From NCBI GenBank assembly GCA_903845295.1, contig CAIMWV010000010.1, positions 1-56,434 on the forward strand: 56,434 nucleotides of DNA, read 5' to 3'. Origin of the DNA: Candidatus Staskawiczbacteria bacterium. GTDB lineage: Bacteria > Patescibacteriota > Minisyncoccia > Minisyncoccales > Staskawiczbacteraceae. The notes beneath the pieces are model-generated. The model saw only the letters and a program-made list of their open reading frames with translations. It made no database searches and was not told the origin of the DNA. The position numbers were made by a program, and so were the translations under genes. Positions 1,557 to 55,365 of this stretch are shown here, one piece after another (positions within the stretch are counted from its first letter, which is position 1; every line of letters starts with the position of its first letter).

Positions 1557-2963
1557 ATGAAAATAAATTTTTTAGGAGCAGCTCAAAACGTAACCGGATC
1601 CAAACATTTAATCCAAACCCAGGGATATAATTTGCTTTTAGATTGCGGTTTATACCAGGGCAGGAGAGACGAATCCAACAGGTTAAACAGCACCCTTCCT
1701 TTTGAAGCTACAGAGATAAATGCTGCCATACTTTCACATGCGCACTTAGACCATTGCGGGACTTTGCCAATTTTAGTCAAAAACGGATTTAAAGGAAAAA
1801 TTTGCTGCACTCCGGCAACGGCGGAAATAGCAAGATATATTTTATTGGATTCTGCTGAAATACAAAAGCAGGATTGCGAATATTTGAACAGGCATTTAAA
1901 TCCCGGCGACAAGGAATTTATCCCGATTTATACGCCAGAAGATGTCCAGAAAGTTCTTGAACATTTTGAAACGGTTGATTATTTCAGGCAAACCAATAAA
2001 TGGACGGAATTAAATGAAAATATACGATTTAAACTTTACGATGCCGGCCATATTTTGGGATCTGCGATAATTTTTTTGGAAATAAAGGAAAATGGACTGA
2101 CGAAAACGCTCGCCTTTACCGGCGACATGGGCAGGGAGTATTCTCCTCTTTTGCGCTCCCCCGAATATATAGCTGAAGATACGGAAACCCTTATCACAGA
2201 ATGCACCTATGGCGACAGAAACCACAAACCCCTGTCAGATGCAACCAGCGATTTTAAAGATGTTATCGATACCGCTATTAAAAATAAAGGCAAAATAATT
2301 GTTCCAGCTTTTTCTTTGGGCAGGACACAGGACATCATTTATATCTTGCACAAACTTTTAGACGAAAAGCTCATCCCCTCTTTGCCAATATATATAGACA
2401 GCCCGCTTGCTGAAAACATCACGGAAATTTTCCCCAAATATATAAAAGATTTCAATGACAATTTCTGGAAAGATTTTGGAAGCCGCGGCGATTCGCCATT
2501 CTTATTAAAAAATTTAACGTACGTACGGTCCCAGGAAAAATCCAAAGCATTAAATAACAAACCGGGGCCTTTGATGATTATTTCTGCTTCGGGAATGTGC
2601 GAGGGCGGAAGAGTATTGCACCACCTGAAAAATAATATAGAAAATCCTCAAAATATAATTTTACTGGCGGGATACCAGGCTGAAAATACCTTGGGAAGAA
2701 AAATTCTGGAAGGCCAAAGCCCTGTAAAAATATTCGGTAAAAATTACGACGTCAGGGCCCAGGTAAAAGTCCTTAACGAATTCTCAGCCCATGCCGACCA
2801 AAACGATCTTTTGTCGTATATCTCGCATATCAAAAACTTGCAGAGAATATTCTTGGTGCATACGGAGCTCCCCCAGTCAACAGCTTTCAAAAATATATTG
2901 GAAAAATCTTATCCATCTCTGCCGATTGAAATCCCTGCAATGGGCAGTATATTTGAAGTATAA
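1557..2963 (+). CDS. MBL-fold beta-CASP RNA-processing hydrolase
   Basis: VTGSKH, LLDCG, SHAHLDHCG, AGHILGS, TGD, ECTYG, SASGM, FSAHAD motifs. Confidence 0.92.
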   Translation: MKINFLGAAQNVTGSKHLIQTQGYNLLLDCGLYQGRRDESNRLNSTLPFEATEINAAILSHAHLDHCGTLPILVKNGFKGKICCTPATAEIARYILLDSAEIQKQDCEYLNRHLNPGDKEFIPIYTPEDVQKVLEHFETVDYFRQTNKWTELNENIRFKLYDAGHILGSAIIFLEIKENGLTKTLAFTGDMGREYSPLLRSPEYIAEDTETLITECTYGDRNHKPLSDATSDFKDVIDTAIKNKGKIIVPAFSLGRTQDIIYILHKLLDEKLIPSLPIYIDSPLAENITEIFPKYIKDFNDNFWKDFGSRGDSPFLLKNLTYVRSQEKSKALNNKPGPLMIISASGMCEGGRVLHHLKNNIENPQNIILLAGYQAENTLGRKILEGQSPVKIFGKNYDVRAQVKVLNEFSAHADQNDLLSYISHIKNLQRIFLVHTELPQSTAFKNILEKSYPSLPIEIPAMGSIFEV

Positions 2964-3008
2964 AAAAACAGCAGTTTTGCGACTTGCTTGGGTCTCGTAA
3001 AGTTATCC

Positions 3009-3518
3009 TTAAAGATTCTTTACCATTATCACGGCTTCTTTAAGCTCGCTGAATCTTTCACGGTCTATTTCCCTAATGCGGACTTTCTTGAATCCGCATT
3101 TTTTGTACAAACTGATCACCGGATGAAATTGTTTTACCCGCAGACCAATTAATTTTGCTTCCAAAGTTCTTTTCGCTTGGTAAAGCGCAGTTTGTATCAG
3201 CGCTGTCCCAATCCCAAACCTCCGAAATTCTTGAGTAACTCCGATTGTCCACACCCACCATGGCGCGTAACAAACGTGGTATTTGGCAGGAATTGAACTG
3301 ACAATGATCACGCCACGTATCTTGCCCTCAACCTCGGCGACCAAAACAATCTTCGCGGTTCTGAGCTGCATCACCCAGGATACTCTGACACTCAAATTTA
3401 TTTGTTGTTCTTTCCCGCCAACTTCCAGTATGCCTTCTAAATCATCTGCTGTGGCATACCGTATAATTGTTTCTTTTCCGTCTGGTTGGAATCTTTTTAG
3501 TATCCGCTGGCCATTCAT
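3009..3518 (-). CDS. GNAT family N-acetyltransferase
   Basis: V...FRRFGIGTALI acetyl-CoA motif and LYKKCGF; AGGAGG ribosome-binding site upstream. Confidence 0.8.
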   Translation of the reverse strand: MNGQRILKRFQPDGKETIIRYATADDLEGILEVGGKEQQINLSVRVSWVMQLRTAKIVLVAEVEGKIRGVIIVSSIPAKYHVCYAPWWVWTIGVTQEFRRFGIGTALIQTALYQAKRTLEAKLIGLRVKQFHPVISLYKKCGFKKVRIREIDRERFSELKEAVIMVKNL

Positions 3519-3594
3519 GGAACCTCCTTATCGTTGATCTTAAGAACAGATTGATAATTTATCATTAACATTTTTATCACAAATGTCAATAACT

Positions 3595-3624
3595 AAAAAC
3601 ACCCGGCGCGCCGGGTGTTTTTTT
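3595..3624. terminator. Intrinsic terminator downstream of lepA (possibly bidirectional)
   Basis: AAAAACACCCGG-CGCG-CCGGGTGTTTTTTT. Confidence 0.8.
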
Positions 3625-3631
3625 ATAAATA

Positions 3632-3671
3632 TTATGCTCTGAAAACTTCTACCCTTCGGCAAGCTCAGGGT
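3632..3671 (-). repeat. REP-like palindrome (3651-3671) plus orphan duplicate lepA tail (3632-3651)
   Basis: Minus strand after the lepA stop: ACCCTGAGCTTGCCGAAGGG TA GAA GTT TTC AGA GCA TAA = EVFRA*. Confidence 0.85.
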
Positions 3672-5474
3672 CTACGCACGAAAAACTTCTAAAAATGCTT
3701 TTGTCGGGACGTTTACCTTTCCCTTTGCTTTCATCAGCTTTTTACCTTTTTTCTGCTTTTCCCTAAGCTTGTTTTTCCTTGTTATATCTCCACCGTACAA
3801 ATATCCTGCGACATCTTTCATATAGGCCCTGATTGTTTCCCTGGCGATGACTTTTCCTCCGATTACCGCCTGCAAGGCAACGGAAAATTGCTCGGGAGGC
3901 AGGACTTCCTTTAATTTTTCAACCATTTTCTTTCCCTCAAAATAAGCTTCATCCTGAGCGACAATCCTTGAAAATGCCTCCTCTTTCTGGCCGGCAACCC
4001 AAATTTCCATTTTCGCCAGCTTGCCGGGCCTATACCCTAAAAGGTTATAACTCATTGAGGCATAACCCTGGCTGGCGGTTTTTATTTTGTCGTATAAATT
4101 GGCAATGATGCCCCGCAAAGGAGTTTCAAAAATTATGATTACCCTTTCCGGACTCAGATAATTTGTCGTAATATAATTTCCTTTCAGACTCTTTAAAATT
4201 TCCATTAATTTTCCCACCTGGTTTGACGGAGCAATAACTTCCAAGGACACCCACGGCTCCTCAGTACTCTTTATTGCAGAAGGATTTTCCGGCCAGTCAG
4301 AAGCTGAATAGATCAAAATCTCCTTGCCTTTCTGGTTAAAAATTTTATAAACAACCGACGGCGTTGAAATCACCAGATCCAAACCAAATTCCCTCTGCAA
4401 TCTTTCTGAAATAATTTCTATATGCAAAGTTCCCAAAAATCCACAGTTAAATCCCCTGCCTAAAGCTTCTTTCATTTCCTGTTCAAAAACCAGCGCGGGA
4501 TCCGATAGTTTCAATTTTGACAAGGCAACCTTCAATAAATCGAAATCATCCGGATTTTCCGGATACAAGCTGGCAAAAACCATGGGCTTCGGCTTTTGGT
4601 ATCCGGGCAAAGGCTCAACCGTACCCCTTGTATTTATATTCTGTAATTTTATAATCGTATCTCCGGCTGTAACTTTTCCGGGCTCCTTAATTCCTGTGGC
4701 AATATACCCGATGTCGCCGGCCTTAATTTTATCTTTTGGCGCAAATGTCGGATTTAAATACCCTAATTCTTTTACTTCAGCCGGGGTTTTGGTTGCCATC
4801 AACTCAATTTTTTCTCCGTTGGAAATCTCCCCGTCAACAACGCGCACAAAAGCAATAACGCCTTTAAAAGAATCGTATTCCGAATCAAAAATTAGAGCCC
4901 GGAAATCATTTTTTACAGATTCTTTCGGAGGAGGAACTTCTTTTATAATTGTTGCTAAAACTTGCTCAACGTTTGTTCCGTCTTTGGCGGAAATTTTCAG
5001 AATTTCTTCCGGTAAAACCTGCAACAGATTTGAAAGCTCTTCAACTGTTTCTTCCACCCTTGCAATCGGAGAGTCAATTTTGTTTACAACCGGAATAATT
5101 TTTAGATTTTGATTTTTTGCCAATTCCAAATTAGCCAATGTCTGCGCCTGGATTCCCTGGGTTGCATCAACCAATAAAACAGTTCCTTCAACTGCTTCCA
5201 AAGACCTTGAAACCTCGTAAGAAAAATCAACGTGGCCGGGGGTATCAACCAAATTCAAAATATAATCTTTGCCCTCAAATTTATAATTCATCCTTATAGC
5301 TTTCAGCTTTATGGTAATCCCCTTTTCTCTTTCCAAATCCATAGAATCTAAAAACTGTGGCATCATTTTTTTTGGATCAATAGTTCCGGTCAACTCCAAA
5401 AGCCGATCGGCTAATGTACTCTTGCCGTGGTCAATGTGTGCAATTATTGAAAAATTTCTTATATTTTCTTGCAT
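3672..5474 (-). CDS. lepA: Translation elongation factor 4 (LepA)
   Basis: IRNFSIIAHIDHGKSTLADR, DTPGHVDF, NKID, YGGDITRK. Confidence 0.98.
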   Translation of the reverse strand: MQENIRNFSIIAHIDHGKSTLADRLLELTGTIDPKKMMPQFLDSMDLEREKGITIKLKAIRMNYKFEGKDYILNLVDTPGHVDFSYEVSRSLEAVEGTVLLVDATQGIQAQTLANLELAKNQNLKIIPVVNKIDSPIARVEETVEELSNLLQVLPEEILKISAKDGTNVEQVLATIIKEVPPPKESVKNDFRALIFDSEYDSFKGVIAFVRVVDGEISNGEKIELMATKTPAEVKELGYLNPTFAPKDKIKAGDIGYIATGIKEPGKVTAGDTIIKLQNINTRGTVEPLPGYQKPKPMVFASLYPENPDDFDLLKVALSKLKLSDPALVFEQEMKEALGRGFNCGFLGTLHIEIISERLQREFGLDLVISTPSVVYKIFNQKGKEILIYSASDWPENPSAIKSTEEPWVSLEVIAPSNQVGKLMEILKSLKGNYITTNYLSPERVIIIFETPLRGIIANLYDKIKTASQGYASMSYNLLGYRPGKLAKMEIWVAGQKEEAFSRIVAQDEAYFEGKKMVEKLKEVLPPEQFSVALQAVIGGKVIARETIRAYMKDVAGYLYGGDITRKNKLREKQKKGKKLMKAKGKVNVPTKAFLEVFRA

Positions 5475-48522: not shown

Positions 48523-48999
48523 CTATAATTTTTCCAATAGCTTCAATTCCAATTTGCCGGTTTCTGTATTATAAACGGCGAATGCAGGCTTGTAAAACTG
48601 GCCTGCCAGTTCGCCCGGGTTTATCAGATGACATTTTTTTCCTTCGGCTCCGCTCAGGACAAGTTCGTCCCATGGCCTGTGCGTATGGCCATAAAAAACC
48701 AAATCAAATTTTCCTGACTGGGCCAGTTTCTTTGCCATATCCGGGAAATGGCAAAAGGCAATTTTCTTACCGCCAAACTCTAATTCCATTTTTTCCGGCA
48801 AATCTAAATTATAATCCGCATTTCCTTTTACAAACTTTATTTCCCCGTCAAAATATTTTTTGGCATCGTCAATTGTTTCCTGGCCTGAAATGTCTCCGCA
48901 ATGCAAAATCAGCCGGATCTTCTCTTTCATTATCCAATCTATTGCCTTCTTAAAATTCACCCAATTATTATGCGTATCCGAAATAACCGCTATTTTCAT
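48523..48999 (-). CDS. YfcE/MJ0936-family metallophosphoesterase
   Basis: ISDTH, HCGD, GNAD, YGHTH, NPGE; in-frame REP encoding VLSGAEG. Confidence 0.9.
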   Translation of the reverse strand: MKIAVISDTHNNWVNFKKAIDWIMKEKIRLILHCGDISGQETIDDAKKYFDGEIKFVKGNADYNLDLPEKMELEFGGKKIAFCHFPDMAKKLAQSGKFDLVFYGHTHRPWDELVLSGAEGKKCHLINPGELAGQFYKPAFAVYNTETGKLELKLLEKL

Positions 49000-49301
49000 G
49001 ACTCATCAAGAATTATTTTGTCTTTGAATTTTCCGCGCTCTTCTGACTTATTATTTTTAACTTTTTACAATTCTTTTTTATCAAATTTTTTATAATCTAA
49101 AATCGCATTAATAACCTCCAAAATATCCGCCATCTCTTCTATGCTTTCGGCCTTCATGAATTCATTTACCTCTTCCTGTAATTTTTCCTTCAGTTTCTGC
49201 CGATATTCAGCATCATCTGCAATATGAGTTACAGGAATTCTGCCTTTGCTTTTGATTATTTCGGGAATCTTATCCCTGACTAATTTGTTGTATTTAGTCA
49301 T
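48996..49301 (-). pseudogene. MazG-like NTP pyrophosphohydrolase with internal TAA at 49065-49067
   Basis: [13 protein letters not shown]...KL.EE..EF...EEMADILEV. The frame continues after the stop as KVKNNKSEERGKFKDKIILDES* and overlaps the next ATG. Confidence 0.8.
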
Positions 49302-49818
49302 ATATATTAATCCAATATCTAAGTTTTATTTTCCCCGAATCTTTTCCCGAATCTGCCTTTACTTTGCTTTCAAATATCCCACCATTTTTCTCTATTATCT
49401 TCTTTGAACCGATATTGTCTTCATTGCAGGTTACCAATACTTTCTTGATTCCCAATTGTTCTGATTTCTTTAACGCCAGAGCTAAAATTTTTGCCCCATA
49501 TCCTTTTTTTCTTTCTGACGGCCTGATTTCATAACCTATATGCCCGCCGTATTTCCTCAACAACTCTGTCAGCTTATGCCTTATCGAAACTTTGCCGATA
49601 AACTTATCTCCGTCAACAAGCCAATAAACGCTGGCCGGGACATAGCCATTGGGCAGGTCTCTCCCTTTTTCCTGGTTTTTTAACAGCTTTATATAAGCCG
49701 GGAAATTATCTCTCAGCCCTTTTAATGTATCATCTTGACGATCTTCTATTTTAAACTCTTCCTGGGCTTCTAAAAAACTTTTTTTGTATTTTATATTTGG
49801 TTTTACCAGCCTGACCAT
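49294..49818 (-). CDS. GNAT family acetyltransferase
   Basis: [38 protein letters not shown]. Confidence 0.9.
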
Positions 49819-49844
49819 ATTATTTATATTATTTATCGATATAT

Positions 49845-50291
49845 TTAACTCTTGGAATTTCTGAGACTGTCTGACGACTTCAATTTTTCTTTGATTCCCG
49901 GCTCTTCAAGCAACATTTTTAAAGGAAGTATCAATGGTTGAGGCAAGTTATTCAGATTAAACCATCCAATTTTTTCACATTTATCAGGTTCCATAATCTT
50001 CGGCGTTCCTAAAATCCCTTTTGCCAAAACTTCTATAGTTACATAATGTTTTTCCGGAGAAAAAATAGTATTGAGGGTTGCCAGCATTTCAATATTTTCT
50101 AAATCCAAACCGACTTCTTCTTTTAATTCCCTTCTGACGCATTCTAAAAAGCTTTCCCCCATTTCCAGATGGCCGCCCACCGACGCCCATGTCCCGCCCT
50201 CATGGTTTCCCTTTCTCAGCATCAAAAAAATCTGGTGCTTATCGTTAACAATATTAATTCCCATTCCAACTTTTGGCCTATTTTTTTCCAT
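49845..50291 (-). CDS. NUDIX hydrolase
   Basis: GGHLE.GES..EC.RRELKEEVG Nudix box and MEPDKC. Confidence 0.9.
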   Translation of the reverse strand: MEKNRPKVGMGINIVNDKHQIFLMLRKGNHEGGTWASVGGHLEMGESFLECVRRELKEEVGLDLENIEMLATLNTIFSPEKHYVTIEVLAKGILGTPKIMEPDKCEKIGWFNLNNLPQPLILPLKMLLEEPGIKEKLKSSDSLRNSKS

Positions 50292-50292
50292 T

Positions 50293-51168
50293 TTACTTAC
50301 CAGTAACGCAATTATTAAAAATATTCACTTGATTATTATATTTTGCAATAGCTTCTTTAATTTGCCCTACCAATAAATTATACTTTTCGACCAATTGATT
50401 ATAATCATCCGCCATTTGGCCGTAACCTGCGGAGTTTTGGTTTGCATTGTCAAGCTGTGTTTTCTTATTATTAATCTGCGAAGAAAATATTTCAAGTTGC
50501 GATTCGGCTGAATCAATCCCATTTTTTAAGTTAGTATCCGGCTGGACGCACGCGGCCGATGGAAACCCGAATTCCTGCACGCCAATCAAAACTGTTTGGC
50601 CCTTATAAGTTCCTTTAATTATGGCAACGCCGATTTCCGTGTATCTGTTGTTTAAGATATTCGCCCTATGCCCGGGGCTTGCCATCCAATCGTCAACGAC
50701 TTCCTTTTCCGATGAAAAATTCCCTAAAATTAAATTTTCTCCCTCAACAATATAATCATAACCGAAACCTTGCACCAATTTTCCCGGATCAACGCCAGAT
50801 GGCGAGACGTGCTCAAAATACTGCTTTGAAAACATATCATTGGCTTTGGCCGAAGCTGCCCCATCAAGTTTTATATTTTCTTTTAATGCCAACAAGTTCC
50901 CGTTTTCCTGCCTTTGCAAATTTGTTTCTGCAATAATCCGGCTTTGCAACAAGACAACCGACTTTGCCGCGCCCCCGATATTCAAGGGAGGCGGTGTCAA
51001 TATTTCTTTCTCGACCTGCTTCAATGTTGAGCCAATATCTGTTTTTTTCAAGCTTTGTACGCCCTTGTTGAAACTATTATAAAATTTTACGGCATCATCC
51101 TTAAAGTAAATCCCCGCTCCCAAAGCCGCAATTATCAAAATAAAAATTATACTTTTAGATACCTTCAT
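50293..51168 (-). CDS. CAP/SCP domain protein with N-terminal anchor and coiled-coil tail
   Basis: KA.DM....YFEH.SP.G, GENL, WMASPGHRANIL, EIGVA. Confidence 0.9.
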   Translation of the reverse strand: MKVSKSIIFILIIAALGAGIYFKDDAVKFYNSFNKGVQSLKKTDIGSTLKQVEKEILTPPPLNIGGAAKSVVLLQSRIIAETNLQRQENGNLLALKENIKLDGAASAKANDMFSKQYFEHVSPSGVDPGKLVQGFGYDYIVEGENLILGNFSSEKEVVDDWMASPGHRANILNNRYTEIGVAIIKGTYKGQTVLIGVQEFGFPSAACVQPDTNLKNGIDSAESQLEIFSSQINNKKTQLDNANQNSAGYGQMADDYNQLVEKYNLLVGQIKEAIAKYNNQVNIFNNCVTGK

Positions 51169-51626
51169 TGCATTTTTAAATTTTGAAGTATCTTAAATCC
51201 CTTTTTGATTGAGCGTATCTCGGGATCCTTCTCTCCTTTTTCTTTGGAAAATATAAGTTTTAGTTCATTCTCGGCTATCCATAAAAAACTGGCGTGATCG
51301 AGCCGATTTATTTTTACATTCTCTATCGGTTCTTCAAATGTAGCGAAATAAATTTTTTCAATTACAGGGGTATCAGTGGTATAAGAAAATTCATCAAATT
51401 GATCAGCGACAACAATATGCATGCCTAATTCTTCTAAAATTTCCCGCTTAAGCCCATCTATAGGATCTTCTCCAGATTCAATGTGCCCGCCGGGCAACTC
51501 ATAGACTCCTGGCATAAAAGTTTTCGTATCAGCTCTCTTGGCTACAAAAACTCTTTCGACACCATCAAAATTATGATGTATAAATGCACAGGCCGTTACA
51601 GTTTGGCTATTATTTTTATTTTCCAT
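51165..51626 (-). CDS. NUDIX hydrolase
   Basis: ELPGGHIESGE....GLKREILEELG. Confidence 0.88.
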   Translation of the reverse strand: MENKNNSQTVTACAFIHHNFDGVERVFVAKRADTKTFMPGVYELPGGHIESGEDPIDGLKREILEELGMHIVVADQFDEFSYTTDTPVIEKIYFATFEEPIENVKINRLDHASFLWIAENELKLIFSKEKGEKDPEIRSIKKGFKILQNLKMQ

Positions 51627-52431
51627 GGCATTTTTTATACTTCTTGCCAGATATCAGATTATTGTTAATTTCTTCAATTGTTTTATGCAATTTAAGATCA
51701 ACTCCGATGCTATCAGCAAAACATATTATGGCCCTTGTGTCTTTCGGCAGGCATTTCCCGCCGTAGCCCCTGTAACCGTCAAAAAATATATCTAAGTGGG
51801 AATCGCCTATCCTATTATCAGCCGCAACAATTTCTTTTACCGTCTCATAACCAATCCCTGATTTTTTGCACAAATCATACATTTGGTTGGCAAAAACCAC
51901 TTTAGATGCCAAAAATGTATTTATAAAATATTTTACCATTTCAGCGTCTCGTGCGCTTACTATTTTTTTGAAGGGGGCATCGGGCAATATTCTTAAAATA
52001 TCTCCGGCAACTTCCCGGCTTTTTGAAGTAAAGCCTACTATCTGCTTATCGGGAAATTTCATGTCATTTTTTGCATTACGCTCCGTCAAAAATTCCGGAT
52101 TAAACAAAACTTTATGGCCGGGATATTTCTTTTGCAATTTTTCCGTTGTGCCAGGGAGAACAGTTGATTTTATAATCACTATCTTCTCGCCTGAAATATT
52201 TTTGCAGGCATCCTCGACATAAGATAAATCAAAACCGTTCTTTTTATCAAACGGAGTCGGCACGCATATAAAAATCACGTCTGCTTTATTTACTTTAACC
52301 AAAGATCCTCTCCCGTTTTTATCATAAACAAAAAGCGGCGCGCCCTTTTCTTTAAAATAATTTTCCAATGCTCCGCCCACGGTTCCCAACCCGATTATGC
52401 CTATGCTATATTTTTTAGAATTCATTGCCAT
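51616..52431 (-). CDS. UDP-glucose/GDP-mannose dehydrogenase family (N-terminal and central domains only) ending in a SecA-like tail
   Basis: GIIGLGTVG, FICVPTP, KSTV.PGTT, NPEFL, AEMVKY..N, GYGGKCLPKD; C-terminus SGKKYKKCHGK*. Confidence 0.88.
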   Translation of the reverse strand: MAMNSKKYSIGIIGLGTVGGALENYFKEKGAPLFVYDKNGRGSLVKVNKADVIFICVPTPFDKKNGFDLSYVEDACKNISGEKIVIIKSTVLPGTTEKLQKKYPGHKVLFNPEFLTERNAKNDMKFPDKQIVGFTSKSREVAGDILRILPDAPFKKIVSARDAEMVKYFINTFLASKVVFANQMYDLCKKSGIGYETVKEIVAADNRIGDSHLDIFFDGYRGYGGKCLPKDTRAIICFADSIGVDLKLHKTIEEINNNLISGKKYKKCHGK

Positions 52432-52439
52432 GGCATTTT

Positions 52440-52889
52440 TTATTTTTCTGGCCAACCAAACTCAATATATTTTTGTCCATTTAAATAACAATCTATTGCA
52501 CTGCGGATATACAAGATAGTATTTGATGGCAAATTATCTAGCGGAAACCAGGACAAGTCATCGCATTTATTTGGCTCCATATTTTTTATTTCTCCTTTCC
52601 AATCTTTTGCAACAAAAAACAAATCAATTCTTTCATGATCTCCGTGCCAGCGATGCATTGTTAAAACCAATTCCAGATTGTCCGTCTTCAGTTTTACTCC
52701 CGCCTCTTCAAAAGCTTCTCTGACCATTGCGTTTTTCATGGTTTCTCCGCCGTCGGCATGGCCGGCCACTAAACCGTATTTTCCATCTTCAAACCCGGTT
52801 TGGAACCTCCGAAGCAATAAAATTTTTTGTTCTTTGATAAAAAGCGCATAAACCGAGGGAATTAACTTGAATCTTTCTTTTACCGCCAT
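52440..52889 (-). CDS. NUDIX hydrolase
   Basis: AGH.DGGET...AM.REA.EEAG and NMEPNKCDDL.WF. Confidence 0.9.
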   Translation of the reverse strand: MAVKERFKLIPSVYALFIKEQKILLLRRFQTGFEDGKYGLVAGHADGGETMKNAMVREAFEEAGVKLKTDNLELVLTMHRWHGDHERIDLFFVAKDWKGEIKNMEPNKCDDLSWFPLDNLPSNTILYIRSAIDCYLNGQKYIEFGWPEK

Positions 52890-52890
52890 A

Positions 52891-55365
52891 TTATTTTTTC
52901 TCCCTCATTAGTTTTTTATGCTCTTCAGTATTCAACATCCCGCATTTCTTATATTTCTTGCCGGAGCCGCACGGACAGAGGTCATTTCTGCCGATTTCTT
53001 TTTTACCGGCCTGCCCTGAGCCCGGCGAACGGGATTCAACAGCGCGAGACTGCGGAGTTGGTTTTTGACGAACCTGCAGGCCGGCTTTCAGGATATTTTC
53101 TGCGATATCAGCGTCAATGGTTGCCAGCAGCTGTCCGAATGCTTTATGCCCCTCATTTTTATATTCAACCAAAGGATCCCTGCCCGAATAAGCCCTCAAT
53201 CTCACAGAATCCCTTATGTGATCCATATAAGACAGGTGTTCCTGCCAAAGCATATCCAAAACACGCAAACAAACAAATTTTTCCACTTGTTTCATATTTT
53301 CAGCTCCCAATTCTTTCTCTTTTTTGCCGTACTCTTCTGGCGAAAGCCCGGCTTTCGCGAAAATTTCCAAAACTTTTTCCTTCAAATCAGAAGTTCCCAA
53401 AAATTCTTTTCTTTTTTTATAAATAATTTCCCTGTGCTTATTCAAAACATCGTCATACTCCAACAGGTGGTGGCGCGAGTCAAAATTGAATCCCTCAATT
53501 TTCTCTTGTGCCGACTCAATGGCGCCCGAAATCATTCCTGCTTGTATAGGCTCGTCTTCAGGAATTTTCAAGGCAGTCATCAAAGATTTTATCCTGTCTC
53601 CACCGAAAATCCTCATTAAATCATCTTCCAGTGAAACAAAAAATTGCGTTGATCCCTGATCTCCCTGCCTGCCGGATCTTCCTCTAAGCTGGTTATCAAT
53701 TCTCCTTGCGTCGTGCCTTTCGGTTCCCATAACATGCAAACCGCCCAATTCCTGGACCATTTTAGCTTCCTCGGGACTGGACGGATTGCCGCCTAAAATA
53801 ATATCCACGCCCCTGCCCGCCATATTTGTTGCAATCGTTACGGCTCCCTTTTTTCCTGCCTGGGCTATGATTTCACCTTCCCTTTCGTGGTTTTTAGCAT
53901 TTAAAATATTGTGGGGAATGCCTTTCGTTTCCAATAATTTTCCTAAATACTCGTTCCTTTCAACAGACCTTGTGCCGACTAAAATCGGCTGGCCTTTTTT
54001 ATGGAGTTCCTCAATTTCTTTTATGGCCGCAGAGAACTTTCCGGCTTCTGTTTTAAAAACTTTGTCGGAAAAATCCTTTCTTACCAGGGATTTGTGCGGA
54101 GGAATTGCAACAACCTCCAGTTTGTAAACTTTATCAAATTCTTCGGCGGAAGTCAGCGCGGTTCCTGTCATGCCGGCCAGCTTTTTGTACATCCTGAAAT
54201 AATTTTGGAAAGTGATTGTTGCCATTGTTATAGATTCCGGCCTTACAACAACCCCTTCTTTCGCCTCCACTGCCTGATGCAGTCCCGCTGACCACCGGCG
54301 TCCGGGCAAAATTCTGCCGGTGAATTCGTCAATAATCAAAATCTCCCCGTTTTTTACGGTGTAATCCCTGTCTTTCAAAAATAACGCTTTGGCTTTCAGC
54401 GCAGATTCCAATTGGTGGGTTGTTATGATATCGTTGTCCAACCAGGGATCGAATCCCAGGCTTTTTACAACCCTGTTCTGCCCTTGGTCTGTGAAAGTGA
54501 CTGATTTTGCTTTCTCATCAAGCTCATAATCAATGCCTTTTTCCAAGGGAGATATAACTCTTGCAAAAGTATAATATTTTTCGGTTGCTTCCTCCGCCTC
54601 GCCGGAAATTATTAAAGGCACCCTTGCTTCATCAATTAAAATTGAATCGACTTCATCAACAACAACAAAATTAAAACCGCGCTGGACTTCCTGATTTCTT
54701 TCGTAGACCATATTATCTCTCAAATAATCAAACCCGAATTCATTATTGGTTCCATAAGTAATATCAGCCGCATATGCTTCTTTCCTTGAAACCGGCTTTA
54801 GATAATTCTGGACCACCTTGAAATTTCCCATTGTGTCCCTTTCCTTGTCTTTCTCTTCATTTTTATAATTAGCGTCATAAACGTATCCTGATTCGTTTAC
54901 AATGCATCCTGCAGACAGCCCCAGAGCGTCATAAACCTGCCCCATCCAAACCATATCTCTTTTGGCCAGATAGTCGTTTACCGTAACAACGTGCACCCCA
55001 AGGCCCAATAATGCGTTTAAATAGGCAGGTAGAGTGGCTGACAGGGTTTTGCCCTCGCCTGTTTTCATCTCTGCAATTTTGCCCTGATGCAGGACGATTC
55101 CGCCTATCATTTGCACGTCAAAATGCCGCTGGTTTAAGGTTCTTTTTGAAGCTTCGCGGACCAACGCAAAAGCCGCAGGAAGAATATCTTCCAAGGTTTC
55201 TCCTTTCGCTAATCTTTCTTTAAATTCTTTTGTTTTTTCTTTTAATTGCTCGCCTGAAAGTTTTTCAAATTCCGGTTCAAAAGAATTTATTTTTTCTATT
55301 ATGGGATTTAACCCTTTTACAAACTTTTCATTAGGATCCCCAAAAATTTTAGATAAAATTGACAT
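52891..55365 (-). CDS. secA: Preprotein translocase subunit SecA
   Basis: EMKTGEGKT, VVTVNDYLA.RD, GFDYLRDNM, DEVDSILIDEAR, ATNMAGRG, IDNQLRGRSGRQGD, GRND.CPCGSGKKYKKC. Confidence 0.98.
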   Translation of the reverse strand: MSILSKIFGDPNEKFVKGLNPIIEKINSFEPEFEKLSGEQLKEKTKEFKERLAKGETLEDILPAAFALVREASKRTLNQRHFDVQMIGGIVLHQGKIAEMKTGEGKTLSATLPAYLNALLGLGVHVVTVNDYLAKRDMVWMGQVYDALGLSAGCIVNESGYVYDANYKNEEKDKERDTMGNFKVVQNYLKPVSRKEAYAADITYGTNNEFGFDYLRDNMVYERNQEVQRGFNFVVVDEVDSILIDEARVPLIISGEAEEATEKYYTFARVISPLEKGIDYELDEKAKSVTFTDQGQNRVVKSLGFDPWLDNDIITTHQLESALKAKALFLKDRDYTVKNGEILIIDEFTGRILPGRRWSAGLHQAVEAKEGVVVRPESITMATITFQNYFRMYKKLAGMTGTALTSAEEFDKVYKLEVVAIPPHKSLVRKDFSDKVFKTEAGKFSAAIKEIEELHKKGQPILVGTRSVERNEYLGKLLETKGIPHNILNAKNHEREGEIIAQAGKKGAVTIATNMAGRGVDIILGGNPSSPEEAKMVQELGGLHVMGTERHDARRIDNQLRGRSGRQGDQGSTQFFVSLEDDLMRIFGGDRIKSLMTALKIPEDEPIQAGMISGAIESAQEKIEGFNFDSRHHLLEYDDVLNKHREIIYKKRKEFLGTSDLKEKVLEIFAKAGLSPEEYGKKEKELGAENMKQVEKFVCLRVLDMLWQEHLSYMDHIRDSVRLRAYSGRDPLVEYKNEGHKAFGQLLATIDADIAENILKAGLQVRQKPTPQSRAVESRSPGSGQAGKKEIGRNDLCPCGSGKKYKKCGMLNTEEHKKLMREKK

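Follow-up and report, generated by a model that had tools for sequence, protein, structure and literature searches.

Displaced copies of the secA 3' end suggest serial gene insertion downstream of secA in a Staskawiczbacteria genome

This study analyzed the region downstream of secA in a window of 56,434 nucleotides (nt), meaning the whole stretch of DNA under analysis (contig CAIMWV010000010.1 of the Candidatus Staskawiczbacteria bacterium assembly GCA_903845295.1). The source genome is labelled G000, and all coordinates are positions in the window. On the minus strand, secA is followed by a NUDIX hydrolase gene (NUDIX1), a short UDP-glucose-dehydrogenase-like gene (DH), a second NUDIX gene (NUDIX2), and a CAP-domain gene, and two displaced copies of the secA 3' end lie at the junctions of these genes. 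The tail copies are homologous, fall precisely on gene junctions, recur beside secA in related genomes, and are accompanied by no integrase. These findings support the interpretation of a first-pass annotation that genes were inserted serially into the overlap between secA and its next gene. The codons of the SEC-C zinc-finger motif probably served as the recombination anchor, and each insert may have brought a new secA end.

Two displaced secA tails at the gene junctions

The features of the locus are listed below, in which R0 is the repeat copy in the resident secA, R1 the copy at the NUDIX1/DH junction, and R2 the copy at the end of DH. Here and throughout, C-terminal sequences are written up to the stop codon.

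52891-55365, minus strand: resident secA, 824 aa, with the Pfam domains SecA_DEAD, P-loop_SecA, SecA_PP_bind, SecA_SW, and SEC-C
52942-52989, minus strand: SEC-C coding island, residues 793-808, RNDLCPCGSGKKYKKC; Pfam stretch and repeat family D1
52942-52965, minus strand: R0, the last 24 nt of the SEC-C island, from repeat comparison
52891-52941, minus strand: the 'new' secA end, GMLNTEEHKKLMREKK, beyond the point at which resident and displaced copies diverge
52440-52889, minus strand: cargo 1, NUDIX hydrolase gene NUDIX1 (PF00293, 4.3e-18)
52424-52456, minus strand: R1, decayed canonical tail GQKNKKCHGNEF, 26/30 to R2 and unique in the genome
51616-52434, minus strand: cargo 2, DH, 272 aa, UDP-glucose/GDP-mannose dehydrogenase family (PF03721 and PF00984)
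51616-51651, minus strand: R2, SGKKYKKCHGK, in frame as the DH C-terminus, from repeat and open reading frame (ORF) comparison
51165-51626, minus strand: NUDIX2 (PF00293)
51166-51177, minus strand: candidate R3, AAAAATGCAATG, at the NUDIX2/CAP junction, with the CAP start codon, from a 12-mer search
50293-51168, minus strand: CAP-domain secreted protein gene (PF00188)

The DH protein ends in ...NNLISGKKYKKCHGK, that is ...EEINNNLISGKKYKKCHGK, which is the canonical end of the SecA zinc finger, SGKKYKKCHGK. The resident SecA ends in ...CPCGSGKKYKKCGMLNTEEHKKLMREKK (...GRNDLCPCGSGKKYKKCGMLNTEEHKKLMREKK), a tail composed of ...CPCGSGKKYKKC-GMLNTEEHKKLMREKK and termed B-type (the CGMLNTEEH kind). 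The first-pass annotation had reported both the SecA-like end of DH and the different end of the resident gene, and the ORF and repeat comparisons bear out both observations: across the 24 nt that code for SGKKYKKC, R2 and R0 are identical at 21 positions, and the three differences are all synonymous. The second, decayed copy that it had placed over the end of a NUDIX gene was likewise recovered as R1, which reads GQKNKKCHGN in its own frame. We searched the G000 genome (778,986 bp, both strands) for further copies. The single further site matching the R1 30-mer at 22/30 or better was R2 (26/30), and the single further site matching the secA 24-mer above 18/24 was the DH tail (21/24); AAATGCCATGG occurred three times in the genome, twice at this locus. 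Chance is excluded as the source of the likeness among the tail copies.

The displaced copies now serve the neighboring genes. At both copies, the ATG within CC-ATG-G starts the next ORF, namely NUDIX2 at 51624-51626 and DH at 52432-52434, as had been proposed for the ATG of CAT-GG. Opened from the R1 methionine, DH reads MAMNSKKY (from 52434), and the 91%-identical relative P0003 is called from the equivalent methionine. R2 thus supplies 11 basic residues to DH together with the start of NUDIX2, and R1 supplies the stop of NUDIX1 together with the start of DH. NUDIX1 has lost its own stop, and its last three codons and stop (PEK) come from R1 in another frame; the five NUDIX1 orthologs compared in the genus all end in ...(E/H)GW, GWK, or GWD, and the G000 copy ends in ...EFGWPEK. 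Both DH and NUDIX1 are complete to about the last codon and are joined to a tail fragment between GG and CAAGAA. The DH tail is half a zinc finger, carrying only the last Cys-His of the C-x-C ... C-[HC] arrangement, and Pfam returned no SEC-C (PF02810) match on DH at E<=0.01.

A 12-mer, AAAAATGC.ATG, occurs seven times in the genome, and only three occurrences lie at long-ORF starts, which are the consecutive starts of DH, NUDIX2, and the CAP gene. This pattern was picked after the data had been viewed and is only suggestive of R3 as a third, oldest remnant. In another member of the genus, G021, the start of the CAP gene is the ATG of secA's own CAT-GG.

Origin of the dehydrogenase tail

The first-pass annotation had proposed that DH homologs be checked for lack of the tail, and the check came out as it expected. 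The short DH family is large (7537 matches at E<=0.001 among 8000 candidates scored), and among the 120 best homologs, whose C-termini were compared, 117 lack the tail; the three carriers are all at least 91% identical to DH. Tail-less homologs mostly end in ...QGIEDPEKFSKRE-like sequences, and the nearest of them, P0004 (74% identical), ends in ...KLTSDKR. The tail is shared by P0002 and P0003 (91% identical, from other assemblies), and P0002 has the N-terminal extension MAGKIKDAMA..., which shows R1 kept in a relative of this identity. A metagenome scan with DH returned 10 loci, nine of which were 33-39% identical over most of the query and carried no tail; the tenth was a short partial match. 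Across the genus set of 26 genomes including G000, the 25 others contain DH in five, NUDIX2 in two, and NUDIX1 orthologs in 19 cases, always elsewhere in the genome. The closest genus homologs of the three genes are either on contigs other than that of secA or 12 kb or more away from it, and the sole genus homologs of NUDIX2 (55% and 31% identical) are both on other contigs. These comparisons indicate that the SecA tail is foreign to the dehydrogenase and that the cargo genes are accessory.

Convergence or chance would make the A-rich stretch with its ATG a mere start region and the DH tail a native one. The copies are indeed short (24-33 nt) and A-rich, and the C-termini of the tail-less homologs P0004 and P0029 (...KLINGKQ) vaguely resemble ISGKK. 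However, both repeats are unique in the genome, KYKKCHGK is kept in the tail's own frame with synonymous changes only, the tail is absent from nearly all of the best homologs, and in other genomes the motif recurs next to secA only, with a reversed control pattern that never clusters. This explanation is close to refuted, and we consider it highly improbable.

Integrity of the assembly at the junctions

Misassembly at the junctions had been named as a refutation and is excluded by contigs from two studies that span them. Logan contigs with no differences bridge 51534-52331 (R2), 51901-52522 (R1), and 52533-53269 (the NUDIX1/secA joint with R0); they come from three runs of one study, and these runs may be from the source sample. 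In the second study, a relative of roughly 88-97% identity has contigs that run across 51060-51677 and 51811-52584. A chimera in which the secA ends of different strains were misjoined would be encouraged by a SEC-C island common to many community members, at which the contigs of several relatives break. It is contradicted by the zero-difference contigs from three runs across each junction, by the same DH-R1-NUDIX1 and NUDIX2-R2 joints in the diverged relative, and by the tail fusion in the independently assembled P0002 and P0003. For practical purposes, this explanation is refuted.

Two further observations were made on contigs. Contig joints at 51127>51619, 51048>51614, and 51129>51659 belong to other organisms and show a tail-like 30-mer or DH-like end followed by a CAP gene; their matching sides are 29-36 nt, which is too short to interpret. 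Many contigs of relatives stop a few hundred bases or less from the secA tail motif (G013:C1 and C25, G008:C41, G048:C20, G200:C109, G224:C6, G326:C23, G413:C16, and G118:C41). These ends suggest strain-level variation or repeats that break assemblies.

Recurrence of displaced tails in related genomes

The SecA bodies of the 26 genus genomes are alike and carry three kinds of tail: the canonical short tail CPCGSGKKYKKCHGK, the long-loop tail CPCGAKH.DGRP.KYKHCHGK, and the B-type tail (7/26 genomes). The interval from secA to CAP, yfcE, and secD differs in almost every genome of the genus, and displaced tails were found beside secA in three more of them. In G014, a CGMLN-type remnant lies 1.2 kb downstream, directly before dinB, with a Gp49-like toxin gene and a helix-turn-helix antitoxin gene in between; in G019, secA directly overlaps the same dinB, and the two genomes look like something close to a before/after pair of an insertion. 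G013 has SCGQGNKYKKCHGK at a contig start, and the partner contig ends just past secA. In G023, the remnant IKYKKCHGK is found 1.4 kb downstream of secA, beyond a gene for an HNH nuclease and a fragment of an IS1595 transposase. The G023 insert (L040 5805-6998) comprises the HNH ORF, a second small Cys-rich ORF, and the IS1595-type fragment on mixed strands, and it is the sole insert seen with nuclease or transposase genes.

We then considered a sample of 401 genomes of the order, in which 173 matched the tail pattern AARNNNAARNNNTGYCAYGG; the reversed pattern, used as the control, gave about 35 matches. At least 14 further genomes (G056, G117, G046, G304, G244, G200, G262, G048, G299, G093, G158, G384, G215, and G172) carry two to five tail copies within 2.5 kb on one strand at the secA end, and about 0.07 such genomes would be expected from the reversed control, which never clustered. 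The count is a lower bound, with 10 genomes having at least two same-strand matches re-queried. The cargo differs at each recurrence. Between the copies lie genes for nucleoside deoxyribosyltransferase, NUDIX, HD, and SET-domain proteins; a C39-like peptidase, a cytidylyltransferase, and HIT with an AAA_14/DUF4143 ATPase; and ParE/antitoxin and ParD/RelE-like pairs as well as small zinc-ribbon ORFs. The next gene starts at the ATG of CAT-GG in G021, G010, G093, G056, G046, G215, G158, and G000 (twice). Outside the order, in a separate sample of 401 genomes of the phylum, a looser pattern revealed close pairs at the secA end that were verified in G833, G663, and G609; G711 and G472 have pairs of the same spacing, judged by spacing only. 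All pairs outside the order consist of a long-loop tail, a hairpin, and a short remnant.

The recurrence with varied cargo upholds the serial insertion proposed in the first-pass annotation; its further claim, that each insert brought a new secA 3' end, is one that we infer. A local origin would have the secA end duplicated or slipped first and the cargo placed between the copies later, so that no new end arrived with the cargo. A true tandem duplication of a 229-nt unit in G244 and short gene-less duplications in G262, G304, G299, and G048 fit this view. In G000, by contrast, the resident end (CGMLNTEEH...) differs in type from both displaced copies (CHGK and CHGN), and in G014, G013, G023, and all pairs of a long and a short tail the ends differ in type or extension. 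Such unlike ends are not expected of a local copy, and we regard local duplication as improbable.

Across 21 genomes, 28 displaced copies were inspected, of which five are in frame as the C-terminus of a cargo protein (DH in G000 and one each in G046, G117, G215, and G158). Pfam recognized a full SEC-C motif on the cargo proteins of G117 (SET, 31.3 bits) and G215 (C39-like, 39.7 bits). These findings suggest that displaced secA ends are a source of the SEC-C motifs found on other protein families. The cargo proteins with a complete or near-complete SEC-C tail, all encoded just downstream of secA, are the SET protein at L079 (G117) 3345-3932, the C39-like peptidase at L095 (G215) 3075-3794, a cytidylyltransferase at L080 (G046) 3027-3557, and a small zinc-ribbon protein at L096 (G158) about 2430-2600.

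Mobility of the secA tail

A tree of SecA bodies without the tail placed genomes with different tails as sisters: G013 (short) with G008 (long) at 100/100 and G010 (long) with G011 (short) at 93/98. Three genomes with the AKH.DGRP tail, a group named by tail type after the tree had been viewed, were rejected as one group (p value of the approximately unbiased test, p-AU, 1.3e-5), which makes the long-loop tail polyphyletic. Judged from these trees, the tails move independently of the secA body.

In a recurrent module of 95-165 nt at the secA end, the long-loop tail CPCGA.H.DGRP.KYKHCHGK is followed by approximately 20 nt of AT-rich sequence and then by a GC-rich hairpin. The hairpins share the motif AAGCG[AG]AGTCC...GAAGG.GGA.GG, with compensatory changes between their stems, and are directly followed by a short-type remnant, (A/V)DGSGKKYKKCHGK. 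The sites are L081 (G304) 2840-3060, L084 (G299) 2900-3110, L083 (G048) 2630-2805, L095 (G215) about 2330-2500, L076 (G244) 3180-3600, L100 (G609) about 2400-2600, L098 (G833), and L099 (G663), and the module spans at least seven families in three classes. Were it excised between TGCGG and TTCGGG, secA would regain a canonical end, and the offset between its two motifs is 1 mod 3 in 7/10 cases. The hairpin matched no Rfam family and was not a multicopy repeat in the five genomes checked. Ribosomal bypass and splicing were also considered as ways in which the remnant beyond the hairpin might be read. In G244 (L076 3200-3600), the 229-nt unit of long tail, hairpin, and short remnant is tandemly duplicated, giving four tail copies in 360 nt, and a fifth copy lies 1.9 kb further on, behind the HIT and AAA-ATPase genes.

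Proposed mechanism of insertion

The secA end has properties that would make it a landing site. Summed contig depth peaks in the bin 52925-53005, at 18.7-216 compared with 0-41 in the preceding bin and 0.9-5.3 in the following one, and many contigs of other organisms match 52942-52989 only, which is the Pfam SEC-C stretch, with loose ends on both sides. Because the upstream linker varies in sequence and length and the downstream genes differ, these approximately 50 nt are the only DNA of the locus common to community members. In this lineage and in many of its relatives, because the next gene starts at the ATG in the His-Gly codons (CAT-GG) of the SecA tail, there is no intergenic space, and only insertions that duplicate the end leave both genes working.

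We propose that incoming DNA would join within the SEC-C codons and supply a replacement secA end, with the old end shifted downstream. The second joint, at the very end of the cargo gene, would be illegitimate or based on microhomology. Such an event would amount to homology-facilitated illegitimate recombination or to a RecA-type single-crossover insertion of a circle carrying the tail, and neither would require a resident integrase. Retention of the old end would follow from its present uses: the next gene takes its start codon and upstream region from it, NUDIX1 its stop, and DH its last 11 residues. At least two insertions, probably three, may have built the G000 array: NUDIX2, then DH, and then NUDIX1 together with the CGMLNTEEH-type end. 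NUDIX2 could itself be an earlier cargo, or else the gene that once lay directly behind a canonical secA end. Displaced copies begin at variable left edges (about 24 to about 63 nt), which decay blurs.

In most pairs, the displaced copy is canonical and the resident end is odd, as in G000, G014, G013, G023, and all pairs of a long and a short tail; the ends differ as KRNMTRIK vs QKLVAQK in G014 and as CHGKQGPV vs CHGK in G013. This regularity and the G019/G014 pair argue that the old end is the one displaced. We consider it reasonably probable that the insertions arose by recombination anchored on homology and closed by a microhomology joint, or else by entry of a tail-carrying circle through a single crossover.

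A serious rival takes the secA 3' end as the attB site of phage-type or mobilizable elements whose attP carries the replacement end, the observed arrays being integrase-less remnants that grew by tandem accretion, with the integrase acting in trans or lost. Direct repeats (21/24 and 26/30 nt) flank the inserts, the secA end is restored, and secA is intact. Cargo of a mobile-DNA type is present, with toxin-antitoxin pairs in G014, G384, and G172 and the HNH nuclease and IS1595 fragment in G023, and the assemblies of G013, G008, G048, and G200 break off right at the tail, which suggests inserts that vary between strains. The coinciding joints of R1 and R2 are what keeps a trans-acting site-specific integrase in contention. 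Against this explanation, no recombinase was found among 24 cargo ORFs from other genomes, and in none of the 26 genus genomes is secA within 50 kb of a tyrosine recombinase; serine recombinases were not searched genome-wide. The single tyrosine recombinase of G000 (PF00589) is Xer-like, lies on contig C27, and is of a kind present in 26/26 genus genomes, and the earlier statement that no integrase is nearby holds. The lengths and left edges of the repeats vary between events, some inserts are gene-less and as small as 50-100 nt, and a scan of viral contigs for the tail as attP matched only a phage protein with its own SEC-C motif. We judge a site-specific integrase to be unlikely. A role of Xer and dif was also considered, the sole recombinase being Xer-like, and was dropped on inspection of the tail, which has no paired arms beyond CCATGG.

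Several results weigh against homology-anchored insertion as the explanation of the arrays. The state before the NUDIX1, DH, and NUDIX2 insertions and the donor were found neither in the genus genomes nor in the metagenome scan with DH, and the arrangement predicted by the first-pass annotation, a secA ending in CHGK that directly overlaps NUDIX2, DH, or NUDIX1, is absent from all genus genomes; the predicted overlap exists with other genes, namely CAP in G021 and a CutA-like gene that starts at the secA CAT-GG ATG in G010. The R1 and R2 joints coincide in their position within the tail, and a joint directly after TGCGG is common to the long-tail modules; a fixed crossover site, and with it a site-specific enzyme, could account for this. 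R1 is more decayed than R2 and was expected to be the younger copy; the better preservation of R2 could be explained, post hoc, by its coding in two frames. For the B-type tail, the monophyly test is marginal (p-AU 0.03), a weak rejection at most, so that the newest event could be older than assumed. The strict KYKKCHG pattern found two copies in 0/401 phylum genomes, the pattern being too narrow. Finally, contigs on the region contained no R0-R1, R0-R2, or R1-R2 joint and no excised or empty form, an absence that contigs cannot demonstrate.

On a wider version of homology-anchored insertion, Patescibacteria in general would possess a cassette system that needs no integrase and docks at the SEC-C codons of secA. 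Recombination between two tail copies would release a circle with the cargo and one tail, which could re-enter the secA of any cell through the 50-nt island. A dedicated 'tail-swap' module of 95-165 nt, made up of the long-loop tail, its stop, and the hairpin with compensatory changes, would belong to the system and would have spread through several classes, and SEC-C tails would be grafted onto unrelated proteins as a by-product. We put this forward as speculation that is more likely wrong than right. If the grafts (dehydrogenase, SET, C39-like peptidase, cytidylyltransferase, and zinc-ribbon proteins) are what they seem, they would provide a route for the spread of SEC-C to many families.

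Gene neighborhood and the resident SecA zinc finger

The genes downstream of secA are closely packed. One nt separates the secA stop from the NUDIX1 start, and 8 nt separate the NUDIX1 stop from the DH start; the overlap is 11 nt between DH and NUDIX2 and 4 nt between NUDIX2 and the CAP gene. No convincing terminator was found on scanning the stretch from secA to the CAP gene. The cargo genes are probably expressed together with secA because they are co-oriented, overlapping or 1-8 nt apart, and free of a convincing terminator. The DH ORF extends over 51616-52434/52455 and has only the N-terminal and central domains of its dehydrogenase family. The GC content at third codon positions is 0.29-0.37 in the cargo genes, compared with 0.41-0.44 in secA, CAP, yfcE, secD, and secF.

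The CAP gene belongs to the conserved backbone of the secA-secD interval and lies downstream of secA in nearly all genus members inspected. It is followed by a further NUDIX gene (49845-50291), a GNAT gene, an ORF resembling MazG, a phosphoesterase gene of the YfcE type, secD, and secF. Counting NUDIX1 (52440-52889) and NUDIX2 (51165-51626), the interval between secA and secD contains three NUDIX genes, which belong to different subfamilies, besides the GNAT, MazG-like, and YfcE genes. In relatives, the same small-enzyme families recur in this interval (48523-52889 in the window) in shuffled order.

The SEC-C motif of the resident SecA scores 33.5 bits (cut-off 20.4) and covers only profile positions 1-16 of 19. 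In the tail of this protein (52891-52944), Gly stands in place of His or Cys right after the third Cys (KKC-G). A His eight residues further on (EEH) is conserved in the seven genus genomes with a B-type resident end and is kept in the displaced remnant of G014; it may be a substitute fourth ligand. A similar end, KKCGLINAPYH, is found in G029, a genome of another family.

Comparison with known systems

Patescibacteria, also known as the candidate phyla radiation, have tiny genomes with few recognizable mobile elements, and their gene uptake is poorly known. At the locus described here, an essential universal gene would offer approximately 50 conserved bases as a shared landing pad for small enzyme and toxin-antitoxin genes, with secA unharmed. 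The order of events can be read from the scars, which show how a gene end, once displaced, comes to serve a different gene as its start signal, and the gene-end fragments fused onto unrelated proteins would be domain grafting caught in the act. If docking is truly independent of a recombinase, it would be a simple general route for the exchange of accessory genes among streamlined genomes.

Homology-facilitated illegitimate recombination in natural transformation combines one homologous anchor with a microhomology joint and classically yields an insertion with a deletion. The secA arrays resemble this process in their anchor (the secA body and SEC-C island), in left edges that vary, and in joints placed at the last cargo codon. 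To our knowledge, there is no description of a single locus at which the end of the anchor is repeatedly duplicated as a short copy. Full-text searches yielded no paper that names the secA end as an integration or replacement site.

Integrative elements that target the 3' end of a protein gene and bring a replacement for it provide a second comparison: e14 targets icd, and such elements undergo tandem accretion. The likeness lies in the duplicated gene end, the intact gene, the displaced end at the far side, and the stacked arrays. The secA arrays examined differ in having no integrase in or near them, in inserts of 0.05-1.9 kb, far below island size, and in repeat edges that vary between events. 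SGI1 is another element of this class, with integration at the 3' end of trmE (PMC8409611).

The arrays also resemble integrons in their small, mostly single-gene, co-oriented, and apparently promoterless units, with the newest nearest the fixed point and a short boundary repeat. Unlike integrons, the secA locus has no IntI and no attI, and its boundary repeat is the coding end of an essential gene; no attC-like inverted repeat was found at R1 or R2 of G000 beyond CCATGG (TGCCATGGCA in R1).

The closest parallel in logic, ahead of the 3'-end elements, concerns rhs loci and loci of contact-dependent growth inhibition (CDI). There, a conserved body such as cdiA repeatedly acquires 3' ends, the displaced ones collect downstream as orphans together with a conserved piece, and a short conserved coding motif acts as the recombination anchor without need of an integrase. 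The term C-terminal displacement and the orphan modules appear in one study (PMC3150448). Both hallmarks are found here, with three tail types on one secA body and orphan fragments downstream (R1 and R2, and the 28 copies in 21 genomes). However, secA encodes a housekeeping ATPase and not a toxin, and no polymorphic toxin/immunity swap takes place; the exchanged parts are 8-20 zinc-finger codons and unrelated cargo, none tied to SecA function, and the orphan pieces are kept as start regions of other genes or grafted onto them. Compared with rhs/CDI loci, 3'-end elements, and integrons, the secA arrays differ in combining the lack of a recombinase and small units with the coding end of an essential housekeeping gene.

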